From the NCBI GenBank assembly GCA_013298505.1, contig JAAFHY010000003.1, positions 35,733-99,732 on the forward strand: a stretch of 64,000 nucleotides of DNA, read 5' to 3'. The position numbers were made by a program, and so were the translations under genes. Below, in pieces: positions 48,835 through 54,481 of the stretch. Every line of letters begins with the position of its first letter. The first letter of the stretch is position 1. The notes under the pieces are model-generated. The model searched no databases, had not been told where the DNA came from, and saw nothing but the letters and a program-made list of their open reading frames with translations. The DNA is from Cytophagales bacterium. Its GTDB lineage: Bacteria; Bacteroidota; Bacteroidia; Cytophagales; Cyclobacteriaceae.

Positions 48835-49782
48835 GTGAGAAAATTAATTCTATTAGGGATTGTAGTCGTGTTGCCTGTTGCTAAAATTTTGGCTCAGCAA
48901 GATCCTCAATTTACCCAATACATGTTCAACACTTTATATTATAACCCAGGGTTTGCTGGGGTAGAGGGTGTAACAAAACTCACGGCTATGCATCGAAGTC
49001 AGTGGCTAGGTTATTCACCAACCAGCGGAGGAGGAGGAGCCCCCACCACCCAGATAATTACATTCACTACTCCGCTTTTCAAATTGAATAGCGGCTTTGG
49101 TGCCCACATTGTCAATGATCAACTCGGCCCTCAAAATAATTTAGAAGCACAAGCTTCTTACGCCTATCATTTAGGAATAAAAGATAGCAAACTCAGTTTT
49201 GGCCTCAGGGCAGGTATTTATTCTCAAACATTTAATTTCAGTTTATATAAACCAATAGAACCGGATCCTAAACTTCCAAGTTCAGGTTCGCAATCGCAGG
49301 TTCGCCCAGATATATCCGCTGGTGTTTTCTGGAGAAAAGAAAAATATTATGTAGGCCTTAGTTTTAACCATCTAATCAATTCAACGTTTGATTTTGGCCT
49401 GAGCCAAAGAGGCAAATTAGAAACCCATGCTTATTTAACTGGAGGATATTTTTATGAAGTGAATTTTGACCTTAAGTTTCACTTCTCAGCGCTTATCCAA
49501 TCCGACCTTAATAGAACATCAGTTAATATTGGAGGCTTGGCTTACTTTAAAGATACTATGTGGGGTGGCCTCTCGTTTCGATCTTCCGAGTCGGCCACAT
49601 TAATGTTGGGATATAGCCTATTAAAGGATAAGTCGTTAAAATTGGGCTACGGTCTAGATTATATCATTCAAGATCAGGCTGCTAAAGAGCCCACTTCACA
49701 CGAATTGATGCTTAGTTACGAGTTGCCTGTAAATGCCGGAAGCGGCAAAAAAGTGGTGAGAACACCCCGCTATAGAAAGTAA
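48835..49782 (+). CDS. T9SS membrane protein PorP/SprF family
   Basis: QQDPQFTQYMFNTLYYNPGFAG, HRSQWLG, SHELMLSY. Confidence 0.93.
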   Translation: MRKLILLGIVVVLPVAKILAQQDPQFTQYMFNTLYYNPGFAGVEGVTKLTAMHRSQWLGYSPTSGGGGAPTTQIITFTTPLFKLNSGFGAHIVNDQLGPQNNLEAQASYAYHLGIKDSKLSFGLRAGIYSQTFNFSLYKPIEPDPKLPSSGSQSQVRPDISAGVFWRKEKYYVGLSFNHLINSTFDFGLSQRGKLETHAYLTGGYFYEVNFDLKFHFSALIQSDLNRTSVNIGGLAYFKDTMWGGLSFRSSESATLMLGYSLLKDKSLKLGYGLDYIIQDQAAKEPTSHELMLSYELPVNAGSGKKVVRTPRYRK

Positions 49783-49921: not shown

Positions 49922-51046
49922 ATGAAGAAAACAGTTTCTCGGAAAGTTCTGTATTACGCATTAATCTTAACAACTTCTGCCGTGGTGGGCAGTTGCGGTC
50001 TACTAGGAATTGGAGGAAAAAAGGGAGGTGGCGATGCGCAAGGTGAAGTAGTAGGACAGTCTACTATAGAGCGCAAAGAAGGATGGTCAATGGTTATTCC
50101 TTACGGGATGGTGCCAATCCCAGCAGGAACATTCCACATGGGGCAGGCTGATGAAGATCCCGCATCTACCCAAATCAACTTTAATAAGCAGATTACGATC
50201 GGCCCATTGTTTATGGACGAGACTGAAATTACTAATGACGAGTACTTACAATTCACTTCTTTCTATACAGGTGCCGAAGGCGGAGCACAATTAACAAGTT
50301 TACCTCAGGTAAGTCAGCAAGAGTTTATGGCTAAGTATTATCCTGATACTACTGTTTGGATGAAAGACTTCACTCACCACATGGGCGATCCTTTAGTAGA
50401 TTATTATTGGCAGCACCCAGGCTATCAAGAGTACCCCGTGGTTGGTGTAAGTTGGGAAGCAGCTTCCTTTTTTGGAAAGTGGAGATCGGCATTCTTAAAC
50501 GAGTGGAGGCAAGTAAACGGTGGCCAGCCACCCATGCCATCTTTCAGATTGCCATCTGAAGCAGAGTGGGAGTATGCCGCACGCGGAGGTCGTGATATGA
50601 ATAAGTATCCTTGGGGAAATCCATACATCAGAAATTCAAAAGGTTGTATGTTGGCAAACTTTAAGCCGGGTCGTGGTAATTATTTTGATGACGGTTTCGC
50701 CTACACTTCTCCTGTCGGGATTTATTTCCCTAACGATTACGGATTAGTAGACATGTCGGGCAACGTGGCAGAGTGGTGTCTCGATGATTTTAATCCAGCT
50801 TCAGTTCCTACTGTCTGGGATTTGAACCCTCAGTTCATCGACAAAAACGCTTACGATAAAGAAGGCAACTCAAAAGAAAAGTACAACGCTCGCAAAGTAA
50901 TACGCGGTGGCTCATGGAAAGATGTCGCCTATTACTTGGAAACAGGAACTAGAACTTACGAATACAAAGATTCTACCCGTGCATATATCGGCTTCAGGTG
51001 CGCAATGACAAACTTGGGTCGCTCTGCTGGCACAGAATTTCAATAA
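49922..51046 (+). CDS. gldK: Gliding motility lipoprotein GldK
   Basis: Lipobox VVGSC; YYPDTTVW, RLPSEAEWEYAARGG, DMSGNVAEW, IGFRC (FGE-sulfatase fold). Confidence 0.92.
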   Translation: MKKTVSRKVLYYALILTTSAVVGSCGLLGIGGKKGGGDAQGEVVGQSTIERKEGWSMVIPYGMVPIPAGTFHMGQADEDPASTQINFNKQITIGPLFMDETEITNDEYLQFTSFYTGAEGGAQLTSLPQVSQQEFMAKYYPDTTVWMKDFTHHMGDPLVDYYWQHPGYQEYPVVGVSWEAASFFGKWRSAFLNEWRQVNGGQPPMPSFRLPSEAEWEYAARGGRDMNKYPWGNPYIRNSKGCMLANFKPGRGNYFDDGFAYTSPVGIYFPNDYGLVDMSGNVAEWCLDDFNPASVPTVWDLNPQFIDKNAYDKEGNSKEKYNARKVIRGGSWKDVAYYLETGTRTYEYKDSTRAYIGFRCAMTNLGRSAGTEFQ

Positions 51047-51103: not shown

Positions 51104-51925
51104 ATGGCAAAGAAAAAAGGAGGATTTGTAGACTTACTATTCACAACCATAATGCCCAAGGTATATGGTATTGGAGCAGCGGTTGTTATTGTTGGTGCAC
51201 TTTTTAAAATTCAACACTGGGAAGGAGCGAACGAAATGTTGATTTTAGGACTTGGTACCGAAGCAATCATTTTCTTTCTAAGTTCTTTTGAGCCCAAGCA
51301 TGCGGAAGCAGATTGGTCAAAGGTATACCCTGAGTTAGCTGAAGACTATGAAGGACCTGTTAGCCAAACAGCATCGAGAATTAGCAACAGACCTTCGGGT
51401 GAATCTCCTTTATTGAAGATTGATGAAATGTTGAAAACCGCTAAGGTAGATCAAAACTTGCTTGATAACCTCGGTAAAGGGTTGACAAACTTAGCTACAT
51501 CAGCTTCTCAAATGAGCAGCCTATCTAATGCAGCGGTTGCAACCAATGATTACGCAAAGAATGTTCAAGCAGCTTCTGCATCATTAACTGAAATGAATAA
51601 GTCATATGGTTCAGCAATGAAAGCAGTAGGCGCAATGGCCGATGCTTCTAAAGATACCAGCGAATATCATAAGCAAGTTCAATCGGTTACTAAGAATTTG
51701 GCCGCCCTAAATACCATTTACGAAATGGAATTGAAAGATGCCGATTCACACGTTAAGAATATGAACAAGTTCTACGAAAGTTTAACTGGTGCTATGCAAG
51801 GTCTATCTAAAGTAGGCGACAACACAGCCAAGTTTACGTCAGAATTGGGTAGCTTAACAACAAATCTTACTGCTCTTAACAAAGTGTACGGCAGCATGCT
51901 TACTGCAATGAAGGGCAGTAATTAA
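51104..51925 (+). CDS. gldL: Gliding motility / T9SS motor protein GldL
   Basis: YGIGAAVVIVGALFKIQHW, GLGTEAIIFFLSSFEP, WSKVYPEL, LNKVYGSMLTAM. Confidence 0.96.
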   Translation: MAKKKGGFVDLLFTTIMPKVYGIGAAVVIVGALFKIQHWEGANEMLILGLGTEAIIFFLSSFEPKHAEADWSKVYPELAEDYEGPVSQTASRISNRPSGESPLLKIDEMLKTAKVDQNLLDNLGKGLTNLATSASQMSSLSNAAVATNDYAKNVQAASASLTEMNKSYGSAMKAVGAMADASKDTSEYHKQVQSVTKNLAALNTIYEMELKDADSHVKNMNKFYESLTGAMQGLSKVGDNTAKFTSELGSLTTNLTALNKVYGSMLTAMKGSN

Positions 51926-51981: not shown

Positions 51982-53577
51982 ATGGCAGGTGGTAAGGAAA
52001 CACCCAGGCAAAAGATGATCGGTATGATGTACATGGTGTTAACAGCCCTTTTGGCTCTTAACGTTAGTAGTGCAGTACTCGAGAAATTTGCCATCATTGA
52101 CGAAACGCTTGTTGCACTTGTTAAAGATAGCGGAGAGTCGAATGATCAGATTTTAAAATCAATCGAAGGATCAAATGTAAGCAGTCCTGAAGTTGAGGAG
52201 GCAAAGACGAAGGCTAAGAAAGTTAGAGATCTTACCAAGGCAACTCTAACCTATATGGACGATATAAAGAAGAAGATGTCTACTGATAAGGAAGGACTTC
52301 CTCTTAAAGATGTTGTTCAAGATACCCATCATGCAGACGAAATGATGCTGAATGATAAGGACGGCCCAAGTATGGCAGTTGGATATGAGAAGGCTTTAAA
52401 CAAGCATGTAGCGGATTTAAATGCGATCATGAAATCTAAAAAGCCTTTTGAGGATATTACTAAAACAGCTGGTCAATATGAGAGTTTTAAGGATGCCAAA
52501 GAGGAATTGAAGAAGCAAGAGTATCCTATTTTTGCATTCCACGGTACTCCTACAATGGGTGCAATAGCTTATGTTAGTCAAATGCAGACAGAAATCTTAG
52601 AGTATGAAAGAGCTGCATTAAGTGAATTGTTAGCAGTAACTAAGGGTAAAGTTTATGAGGTAGATCAGTTGGTTCCTATGGTTAGGGCTCAATCAAACAG
52701 CTTGGTTGCAGGGGCGAGTTATGAAGGAGACCTCTTTTTAGCGGGTGCTGCTTCAGGTGGAGCTGATCCTGATATGTTTAAAGGAAATGAAAAGATGAAA
52801 CTTCAAGAAGTTGAAGTCTCTCCAGGTGTAAAGATTAAAATGGCAAGAATAAAGTTTACCGCCAGTGCTTCTAGTTATAATAAGGATGGTATTGCGGAAA
52901 TGTCATATCCCGTTAAAATTGTTATCCCAGGTCGTGATCCAATAATGCAGACTATCAAATACAATGTCATTCGGCCTGTTGCAAAATTTGAGTCGGAAGG
53001 TGCAAGCACACTTTATTTAGACTGTGGAAACGAAGTTTCTGTGAGCGTTCAGGGATTGCAAGAATCTTCTAGCATTGGTTTGAGTGTTCCTGCTGATCAA
53101 GGCAAGGTAATACAACAAGGATCAGGTAAGTTCGTTCTAATTCCAACTCGTCCGCAAATGGATGTGAGAGTAACCGTGGGCGGGGTACAAATTGACGTAA
53201 AACAATTTAAAGCGAAAGAAGTGCCAAAGCCATCTGCTAAGTTAATGGTTGGAAATGGGGATTATGACGTTAAAAAAGGTATACCTCCTGGAACTTCGAT
53301 TGTAAAATTTATACCTGATATTACTGACGATACGTTTAAGCGTCAAAATGCGAAAGACGCTAGTTATCGTATTGTTAGCATGACACTTCAAATTACTGGA
53401 AAGACACCGATAACATTAACTTCAGGAACAATCGAACTGACCAAGTACGGTCTAAGGGCTGGTGATAGTTTCTCTATCTACAATGTTCAAGTTCAGCGTT
53501 CGACTTGGGATCCAAGTGATGCGGATAACAAACCTGTTAATGCAAAATTAGAGGGCTCGTATATAATGGGCAGATAA
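51982..53577 (+). CDS. gldM: Gliding motility / T9SS protein GldM
   Basis: MAGGKETPRQKMIGMMYMVLTALLALNVS. Confidence 0.96.
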   Translation: MAGGKETPRQKMIGMMYMVLTALLALNVSSAVLEKFAIIDETLVALVKDSGESNDQILKSIEGSNVSSPEVEEAKTKAKKVRDLTKATLTYMDDIKKKMSTDKEGLPLKDVVQDTHHADEMMLNDKDGPSMAVGYEKALNKHVADLNAIMKSKKPFEDITKTAGQYESFKDAKEELKKQEYPIFAFHGTPTMGAIAYVSQMQTEILEYERAALSELLAVTKGKVYEVDQLVPMVRAQSNSLVAGASYEGDLFLAGAASGGADPDMFKGNEKMKLQEVEVSPGVKIKMARIKFTASASSYNKDGIAEMSYPVKIVIPGRDPIMQTIKYNVIRPVAKFESEGASTLYLDCGNEVSVSVQGLQESSSIGLSVPADQGKVIQQGSGKFVLIPTRPQMDVRVTVGGVQIDVKQFKAKEVPKPSAKLMVGNGDYDVKKGIPPGTSIVKFIPDITDDTFKRQNAKDASYRIVSMTLQITGKTPITLTSGTIELTKYGLRAGDSFSIYNVQVQRSTWDPSDADNKPVNAKLEGSYIMGR

Positions 53578-53581
53578 GAAT

Positions 53582-54481
53582 ATGAAAATGAGGATATCGA
53601 TTATAGTTTTTTTGTTGGTTGGCTTATTCACCAATGCGTTCTCACAACGAGACACCATTGTCAATCCTAATTCGATTGAGAAAATTCCTTTTTATGAGCA
53701 ACTTTATCGCTTCAGGGTATGGAGAAATGTTAACCTCCAAGAGAAGCAAAATGCTGCATTCAAATCTGCTAAATCGGATATTGGAGCATTTATTATTAAG
53801 TGCATTAAGAACGGAAGTTTAATTGCGTATGATGGAGATTCTGTAAAAGCTCCAAAAACACCTGACCAGGTCTTGGTTTTGAACTCCGCAGTTCAGTCTC
53901 CTCCTTACGATGCAAAGAAGAACTATGTAGCTAGTGAAGAAGCTTATTTTGAAGGTAAAAATTATTTGTCATCAAGAAATGATAACATAGGTCACTTACC
54001 AACGGATAATCAATGGTGGGAGCTATCAAGTAATCAAACTGACTTTCTTCTTCCTGCGCAAGTTAAAGAACTCCAGATTGTAGAGGATTTGATCTTTGAT
54101 AAAAGAAGGTCGCGGTTGTACTACGATATTCTCTATGTAGGTATTATAGTAGAGAAAGACGGTAATTATAATCCACAAGGCTATGTGTACTATAAAGATC
54201 TTGTAAAGTTAATCGAAAAAGCAGCTCACAGTAAGGATCTTGATGAACGTGACAAAGTTCAGTGGAGAAATCGTTACAATCCTTCAGAGAATAAAACTTT
54301 TGTGGACGCCTTTAAACTTCGTTTATTCCACGGTGTTATTGAAAAGGTAGAGAACCCTGATGATCGTACTATCCAAAACATCTACGAGTTGAACGGAAGA
54401 ACCATTGGTGAGTCTGTTTTTGCTAGATGGGAAGAAGAAATGAAGATGATGGAGAAGGAACATAACCTTTGGGAATATTAA
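53582..54481 (+). CDS. gldN: Gliding motility protein GldN, with an inserted CBM-like module
   Basis: RFRVWRNVNL, EDLIFDKRRSRLYYDI, MEKEHNLWEY; last gene of gldKLMN. Confidence 0.93.
   Translation: MKMRISIIVFLLVGLFTNAFSQRDTIVNPNSIEKIPFYEQLYRFRVWRNVNLQEKQNAAFKSAKSDIGAFIIKCIKNGSLIAYDGDSVKAPKTPDQVLVLNSAVQSPPYDAKKNYVASEEAYFEGKNYLSSRNDNIGHLPTDNQWWELSSNQTDFLLPAQVKELQIVEDLIFDKRRSRLYYDILYVGIIVEKDGNYNPQGYVYYKDLVKLIEKAAHSKDLDERDKVQWRNRYNPSENKTFVDAFKLRLFHGVIEKVENPDDRTIQNIYELNGRTIGESVFARWEEEMKMMEKEHNLWEY

Follow-up and report, generated by a model that had tools for sequence, protein, structure and literature searches.

A CBM5/12-Fold Module Inserted into a Surface Loop of GldN in an Uncultured Lineage of Cytophagales

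The gldKLMN Cluster and Its GldN

The window, which is the whole stretch of 64,000 nucleotides that was analysed from a Cytophagales bacterium, carried a gene cluster in the order PorP/SprF-GldK-GldL-GldM-GldN, with GldN as the last gene (Pfam analysis of the window). The loci of relatives had the same gene order. The genes of the cluster and the parts of GldN that are referred to below were as follows.

48835..49782, + strand: PorP/SprF-family outer-membrane protein, first gene of the cluster (Pfam PF11751, E 3.8e-71)
49922..51046, + strand: GldK, a lipoprotein with an FGE-sulfatase fold and the docking partner of GldN (Pfam PF03781, E 3.4e-50)
51104..51925, + strand: GldL, motor stator (Pfam GldL_N, E 1.9e-32)
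51982..53577, + strand: GldM, motor rotor (GldM_1st, 2nd and 3rd above cut-offs)
53582..54481, + strand: GldN coding sequence, 299 aa (PF19841, E 7.7e-43)
53900..54025, + strand: CBM5/12-fold module of GldN, aa 107-148 (profile homology, predicted fold, residue census)
54026..54061, + strand: poorly conserved linker from the module to strand β3, aa 149-160 (column conservation 0.48)
54062..54157, + strand: long β3-turn-β4 hairpin of the GldN core, aa 161-192 (AF2 strands 161-173 and 178-192)
54095-54112, + strand: turn FDKRRS, aa 172-177 (matches the PorN turn that plugs into PorK)

GldN/PorN is the periplasmic subunit of the PorKN ring of the T9SS and of a gliding track, GldJKN, that has been proposed, and recent structures present it as the 'cog' or track surface that is pushed by the GldLM/PorLM motor. 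To our knowledge, GldN/PorN has been described as a new fold without recognisable domains.

The GldN of the window matched PF19841 with 147.2 bits (cut-off 23), aa 39-298 covering profile positions 5-228 of 228, and over the matched span it was about 36 residues longer than the profile. TIGR03523 scored 84.7 bits, marginally below its cut-off of 85.9. The protein started with an N-terminal Sec-type signal (MKMRISIIVFLLVGLFTNAFS, followed by Q), and the FDKRRS turn was invariant or nearly so in the alignment of the GldN family. No ORF of 80 aa or longer was found on the opposite strand over the GldN stretch. In operon position, signal peptide, Pfam match, predicted fold and the β3-β4 turn that docks into GldK/PorK, the protein was like GldN/PorN; it is a normal T9SS/gliding GldN from a gldKLMN operon in which one surface loop has been replaced. 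In GldM of the window, the GldN-contacting domain GldM_4th was divergent (18.6 bits vs a Pfam cut-off of 24.6).

An earlier note on this DNA had singled out a 42-residue segment between conserved GldN blocks as a chitin-binding-type module. The quoted string, PPYDAKKNYVASEEAYFEGKNYLSSRNDNIGHLPTDNQWWEL, was found at aa 107-148 of GldN, corresponding to nt 53900-54025. Its placement at 53899-54025 was correct at the end, while the start lay one base early and out of frame, the true start being 53900.

About 20 residues upstream of the module, D-S-V at aa 85-87 (window 53834-53842) matched the Bacteroidota O-glycosylation motif D(S/T)(A/I/L/V/M/T/S/C/F/G), and this position was D-S-V or D-S-L in most of the family. 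Both PorK and PorN are O-glycosylated (PMC12365241).

A further gldM-gldN-acetyltransferase locus was present in the same bin (G000 contig C23, L001:1495-2388, - strand). Its GldN had 297 aa, was 79% identical to the window GldN and also contained the module. That it could be a GldN/GldO-type paralogue was rejected on the identical synteny and the 79% identity; because the synteny is identical to that of the window, this locus most likely belongs to a related strain or species that was co-binned (bin contamination 2.19%). The gldKLMN-acetyltransferase synteny was common to relatives with one module and relatives with two.

Homology of the Module to CBM5/12

When searched alone, the window copy gave no signal. 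Neither the segment nor the whole GldN had a CBM match in Pfam or NCBIfam at E<=10, and neither matched any PDB sequence, PorN included, at E<=10. Since these single-sequence searches were empty, the CBM signal was visible only through relatives and profiles. A profile search with the 42-aa segment, which had been proposed as a check of the module, was thus negative for the window copy alone (E<=10) and positive for the copies of the relatives and for the profile built from them.

The homologue search for GldN found 902 proteins, and 120 of these were listed, each at least 44% identical to the window GldN. Several of the 120 already carried a precomputed PF02839 match. P0017 (73% identical) scored 26.2 bits at aa 108-146, exactly the gathering score of 26.2; P0117 (350 aa) and P0120 (351 aa) had two copies each, with PF02839 scores of 35.3 and 29.7 bits; and P0004 (85% identical) matched with E 0.017. 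Segments from 52 non-redundant relatives, together with four repeats from the two-copy proteins, were combined into an alignment of 56 copies (A1). When these copies were scanned singly, PF02839 was matched by 26 of the 56 at E<=0.01 (best E 1.4e-8), and no Pfam family other than PF02839 was matched. The window copy lay below the PF02839 gathering score, with no match at E<=10, and the relatives alone reached it.

The A1 profile matched only CBM5/12 carriers in the PDB. These included a Vibrio chitin deacetylase (4ny2, E 3.6e-5), the ChBD of Bacillus circulans chitinase A1 (1ED7, E 1.2e-3, residues 1-44 of 45), phage tail spike and tail fibre proteins and a DUF3472 protein; the ChBDs of Pyrococcus and Streptomyces chitinases (including 2d49) were found lower in the list. 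Alignment of A1 with 1ED7 by hhalign had a probability of 87% and an E-value of 4e-6, and ran end to end over 41 columns of 45 residues. The 1ED7 sequence used was identical to the PDB entry at 45/45 positions. No other PF02839 match was found in the rest of the genome at E<=0.1, hence no donor gene was found.

Chance resemblance to CBM5/12 was ruled out by the profiles of homologous segments and by the predicted fold, and the GldN segment is very probably a real CBM5/12-fold insertion. As judged from profiles and model, the module is a descendant of the CBM5/12 (ChtBD3) chitin-binding fold. The assignment to this family in the earlier note was therefore borne out by the PF02839 matches of 26/56 copies, the hhalign result for 1ED7 (E 4e-6) and the predicted fold. 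What was already known consisted of automated PF02839 matches on a few relatives in databases. No carbohydrate-binding-type domain in GldN or PorN was found described in the literature search, which agreed with the earlier statement that no sugar-binding domain was known in GldN.

Predicted Structure of GldN

AlphaFold2 was run with A2, a 60-sequence alignment of the family. The GldN model had a mean pLDDT of 81.9, with 83-90 in the module, and the strands of the module were at aa 120-123, 126-130 and 146-148. The core was assigned the PorN fold, an elongated antiparallel sheet with short covering helices. In the Foldseek search of the PDB, ranks 1-5 were PorN chains (E 2.5e-9 to 2.7e-7), with 9mzu_B first (2.5e-9), then 9ots_D, 9myj_A and 7pvh. 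From rank 6, nearly all matches were CBM5/12 carriers or the related CBM73. The CBM5 of Serratia ChiB was aligned over 52 columns with an rmsd of 2.1-2.2 A, the isolated ChiC domain of Streptomyces griseus (2D49) had a target-normalised TM of 0.78, and further matches were Vibrio deacetylases and phage tail fibres. The E-values of the CBM matches were weak (0.08-0.3; short matches), and the list was uniform. AlphaFold had been named earlier as a way to check the module, and it returned three strands at pLDDT 83-90 with Foldseek matches to CBM5/12 after those to PorN.

Prediction of the excised module from its single sequence gave a pLDDT of 55 and only helices, and this model was set aside as uninformative. 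The sequence profiles agreed with the predicted structure, and the protein was therefore taken to consist of a PorN-fold core with an inserted CBM5/12-fold domain.

Insertion Site and Orientation

The window GldN was aligned with 50 GldN from across the class. The module lay between two conserved GldN blocks, in a region that varied by lineage. Most GldN had about 20 residues at the module site, and one genus of the window's own family had nothing there. Flavobacterium GldN and GldO had an unrelated charged insertion of about 38 aa in the same variable region, which gave no module-HMM match and showed no CBM5/12 similarity. The nearest module-free relatives and other Cytophagales had acidic low-complexity loops rich in GFGDD/GWGDD. 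Where canonical GldN/PorN have a short variable stretch, the window GldN thus had a folded domain of about 42 aa. In the alignment with Flavobacterium GldN and PorN, the segment and its range were those of an insertion, as had been claimed, the canonical GldN having only the short stretch of about 20 residues. It had also been said that the reading would fall if the segment had no CBM-like match or aligned with an ordinary loop of canonical GldN. The second of these was found to be true, as the site is an ordinary hypervariable loop; the first was not, as the loop holds a real folded CBM5/12-type domain.

Acidic loops with repeated GFGDD/GWGDD units were seen in the module-free sister loci L101-L104 and L108-L112, at the equivalent of window 53870-54060. 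It has been proposed that conserved negatively charged cogs meet a positively charged PorM tip (PMC12365241), and the GFGDD/GWGDD loops may be relevant to these 'conserved negatively charged cogs'.

Searched against the PDB, the close-family profile A2 reached only CBM carriers, through the module, and did not reach PorN. The core of the window subclade lies on a long branch and, unlike canonical GldN/PorN, is too diverged for a match to PorN by sequence only. The broader GldN alignment A3 was aligned with Porphyromonas gingivalis PorN (chain 9mzu_B) with an E-value of 5.8e-43, and the module site corresponded to the PorN stretch preceding strand β3.

In PorN, the β3-β4 turn F179-S184 (9mzu numbering), equivalent to P158-S161 in the mBio numbering, is among the loops that dock in PorK (PMC12365241, PMC12421860). 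The module joins the end of β3 opposite the FDKRRS turn, which is the GldK plug, and it should therefore project away from GldK. From the strand topology and the published PorN data, we infer that the module stands out from GldN at the end that is distal to GldK and faces the periplasm. The PorM tip has been modelled between 'cog-like projections' of the PorKN ring (PMC12365241), and the side that carries the module would be the side of these projections, which the GldM/PorM tip engages. In F. johnsoniae GldN, an 'extra loop' of about 40 aa lies close in space to the C-terminal end of the PorN core that was crystallised (PMC8861641), and PorN A241, two residues past the end of that core, cross-links to PorM S460 (PMC12421860). 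The placement of the F. johnsoniae loop and the A241-S460 cross-link fit a periplasm-facing module, with the limit that an exactly identical insertion point is not certain.

Distribution and Origin of the Module

The GTDB family of the window was surveyed with one genome per genus. GldN was found in 115 of the 120 sampled genera. Among the 29 best loci from other genomes, the module occupied the same position in 20 (module-HMM E 1e-5 to 1e-16) and was absent from 9. With genus g2 (G111 and G458) included, the module was present in at least 21 of the 120 sampled genera. Outside this family, the module HMM found no module in the 30 GldN loci of the same order or in about 45 from the remainder of the class. 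In a scan of 251 genomes of the order, strong matches to the module profile (E<=1e-10) occurred only within GldN of this family; weak matches elsewhere in the order were few and mostly in ORFs of 850-1850 aa, which were other proteins.

A maximum-likelihood tree was computed from the GldN core after the module region had been taken out. All 32 module-bearing sequences fell on one side of a supported branch (99/85), requiring one change, and this grouping was found in 100% of the bootstrap trees. One change on the tree fits one gain without any loss among the sampled sequences. On this tree the module has a single origin, within a subclade of one family of Cytophagales, and the surveys and the core tree upheld the earlier description of the module as lineage-specific. 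The window subclade was on a long branch of the core tree.

The best 80 matches among named genome records were all from uncultured MAGs, labelled Cyclobacteriaceae, Flammeovirgaceae, Cytophagales or 'uncultured Ohtaekwangia sp.'. Among these 80, 65 had one module, 6 had two in tandem, and 9 failed the module HMM; one of the 9 failures, L176, kept the W...Y.AGE.V...Y...P...W signature with expanded loops.

Tandem modules, both in the same loop, were seen in one branch (L182, L184, L186, L187, L189, L190, P0117 and P0120), in which GldN was about 350 aa long. Another branch, of which L176 is an example, had an elaborated module with expanded loops that failed the module HMM.

Conservation and the Former Binding Residues

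In the family alignment, mean column conservation was 0.67 in the module, 0.70 in the N-terminal core, 0.80 in the C-terminal core and 0.48 in the linker. About 10 module positions were at least 90% conserved, including surface-loop residues outside the fold core. Between the two GldN copies in the bin, pN was 0.225 in the module vs 0.131 elsewhere, and dN/dS was not computable because synonymous sites were saturated (pS 0.86).

A residue census was made on 138 unique module copies. The fold core was kept: it consists of an aromatic at 109, Tyr115, Tyr/Phe123, Gly125, Tyr128, Pro140 and an invariant Trp146, and Y115, Y128 and W146 were present in 132, 135 and 138 of the 138 copies, respectively. 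In CBM5, an almost universal Y/W-W pair lies 17 and 18 residues past the core Tyr and stacks on the sugar together with a third aromatic residue (PMC8449059). The equivalents of this pair in the module were Arg132-Asn133 (R in 107 copies, otherwise V, Q and others at the first position; N in 113, D in 20 and others at the second). The equivalent of ChiA1 Trp687 in the hhalign alignment was His138 (H in 79 copies, N in 31, otherwise aliphatic or polar). None of the 138 copies had an aromatic residue at the positions of R132, N133 or H138.

In the window subclade, a polar motif S-x-R-N-D-N-x-G-H-L-P-T-D, starting at S130, was strongly conserved and spanned the former binding positions. The motif differed in the deeper module-bearing genera; since the RNDN-GH loop is specific to the subclade, any specific contact may differ between lineages. 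Trp145, beside the core Trp146, was conserved in 108 of 138 copies. It might be exposed, and together with His138 it could give some sugar affinity.

By eye, the D4 domains of GldM from module-bearing and module-free genera looked alike, and only the fast-evolving subclade of the window differed. This comparison of module presence with GldM D4 gave no signal for a GldM contact, and a single gain leaves a test of co-variation between the module and GldM without statistical power.

Possible Role of the Module

All 138 copies lacked the chitin-binding surface aromatics, and the module was therefore read as a domesticated fold. From these residues it probably serves as a structural addition and does not bind chitin. 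As proposed here, domestication would have made the CBM5/12 fold into a rigid protrusion, where the sister lineages have a flexible acidic loop. The protrusion would shape or stiffen the surface against which the motor tip, an adjacent GldN or some other periplasmic partner presses, and its contacts would be made through the conserved polar loop (S-x-RNDN-x-GH-LPTD), not through CH-pi stacking on a polysaccharide. We give a role in protein contact or cog decoration about an even chance. A module that is only a tolerated passenger, a small stable fold that sits in a permissive loop as a neutral spacer without a specific partner, would agree with the range of states accepted at the site (nothing at all, Gly-rich or acidic loops, the unrelated charged stretch of Flavobacterium, and modules that are single, double or elaborated) and with the higher pN of the module (0.225 vs 0.131 elsewhere) between the two bin copies. 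However, the module was kept without loss across at least 21 sampled genera of a single clade, its roughly 10 positions with at least 90% conservation extend to surface-loop residues beyond the fold core, and the module as a whole is as conserved as the N-terminal GldN core and more conserved than the linker next to it. Such retention and conservation disfavour a neutral passenger, which is considered distinctly unlikely.

Sugar binding was weighed in two forms. The ancestral fold makes it conceivable that the module is a canonical chitin-binding CBM5/12 by which the machine senses or holds chitin, but family resemblance is the single point for this, and it is highly improbable: the stacking aromatics are absent, the genome has no other PF02839 domain, and GldN is periplasmic, so insoluble chitin is out of its reach. 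The periplasmic location follows from the signal peptide and from the position of PorN under the outer membrane (PMC12365241). Judged by its residues, the module is very probably not a crystalline-chitin binder.

The earlier note had suggested that the module touches peptidoglycan or glycosylated cargo as an anchor or track element; this idea drew no support from the analysis, and the residue census weakened it. Peptidoglycan glycan strands have a GlcNAc-containing, chitin-like backbone, and Bacteroidota attach O-glycans to periplasmic and outer-membrane proteins. A module that works as a periplasmic glycan reader would bind peptidoglycan strands or Bacteroidota O-glycans and so guide or tether the GldKN ring or track. 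In favour of this, known members of the ancestral fold bind GlcNAc polymers, and CBM5 uses polar residues beside aromatics in binding soluble chitohexaose (PMC8449059). The ligand-contact loop of ChiA1 is exactly the part that has turned into the conserved polar motif (His, Asn, Asp, Arg), the inferred periplasm-facing position points towards the peptidoglycan layer, and PorK and PorN are O-glycosylated (PMC12365241), the D-S-V motif at aa 85-87 lying just upstream of the module. On the other hand, the three canonical stacking positions are non-aromatic in 138/138 unique copies, and conservation of the polar loop does not extend to the deeper module-bearing genera. The GldKN assembly also rotates or travels in current models (PMC12635249, PMC12365241), and firm binding to static peptidoglycan would therefore act as a brake on it. 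Binding of the module to peptidoglycan or other glycans is less likely on these residues, and a working glycan reader of this kind seems rather doubtful. The narrower proposal, in which a remodelled CBM5/12 on the moving GldKN ring or track reads peptidoglycan or O-glycans through the polar, His-containing site, is judged unlikely. If a glycan reader were present, the core of the T9SS/gliding machine would have its first element for recognising carbohydrates, which might act as a guide or a clutch linking track and cell wall.

Comparison with Known Systems

With CBM5/CBM12 (1ED7, 2D49 and the CBM5 of Serratia ChiB), the module shared its length, the predicted three-strand 'ski-boot' fold, the core Tyr/Trp, Gly and Pro positions and an end-to-end profile-profile alignment. 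It differed in the residues at the Y/W-W pair and Trp687 equivalents, which were replaced by Arg-Asn and His/Asn; in being embedded in the loop of another domain instead of appended to an enzyme; and in being periplasmic, with the window copy below every Pfam threshold. The 'extra loop' of F. johnsoniae GldN (PMC8861641) is likewise a lineage-specific insertion in the same variable region between the blocks; it is charged and probably unstructured, whereas the module is a folded, recognisable domain. The CBM5/12-like modules of phage tail fibres and spikes (8fqc gp124, 8ke9/8kec and 9rkv) were among the same profile and Foldseek matches, and there too the fold is a building block of a structural protein and not of a glycoside hydrolase. 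Unlike the GldN module, those modules belong to proteins that bind receptors outside the cell, and they are unrelated to the T9SS.

The loop before strand β3 can be regarded as an evolutionary docking port of GldN. In a widespread uncultured lineage of Cytophagales, this port captured a CBM fold, which was stripped of its sugar-stacking residues and, in some members, duplicated. The module clearly illustrates how a CBM fold can be re-used within a molecular machine, and the basic model of the T9SS is unchanged by it. The natural series of GldN with no insert, an acidic loop, one module and two modules can be used for asking what role the periplasm-facing surface of GldN has. For annotation, a PF02839 match in such a GldN should not be read as chitin binding.

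Divergence Within the Cluster

In genome G443, which is of the same genus, GldK was 92% identical to the GldK of the window, GldN only about 52% and the housekeeping GltX 71%. The C-terminal domain of GldM was also strongly diverged in the window subclade. From these identities, the pair formed by the motor tip and GldN seems to evolve much faster than GldK in this subclade.
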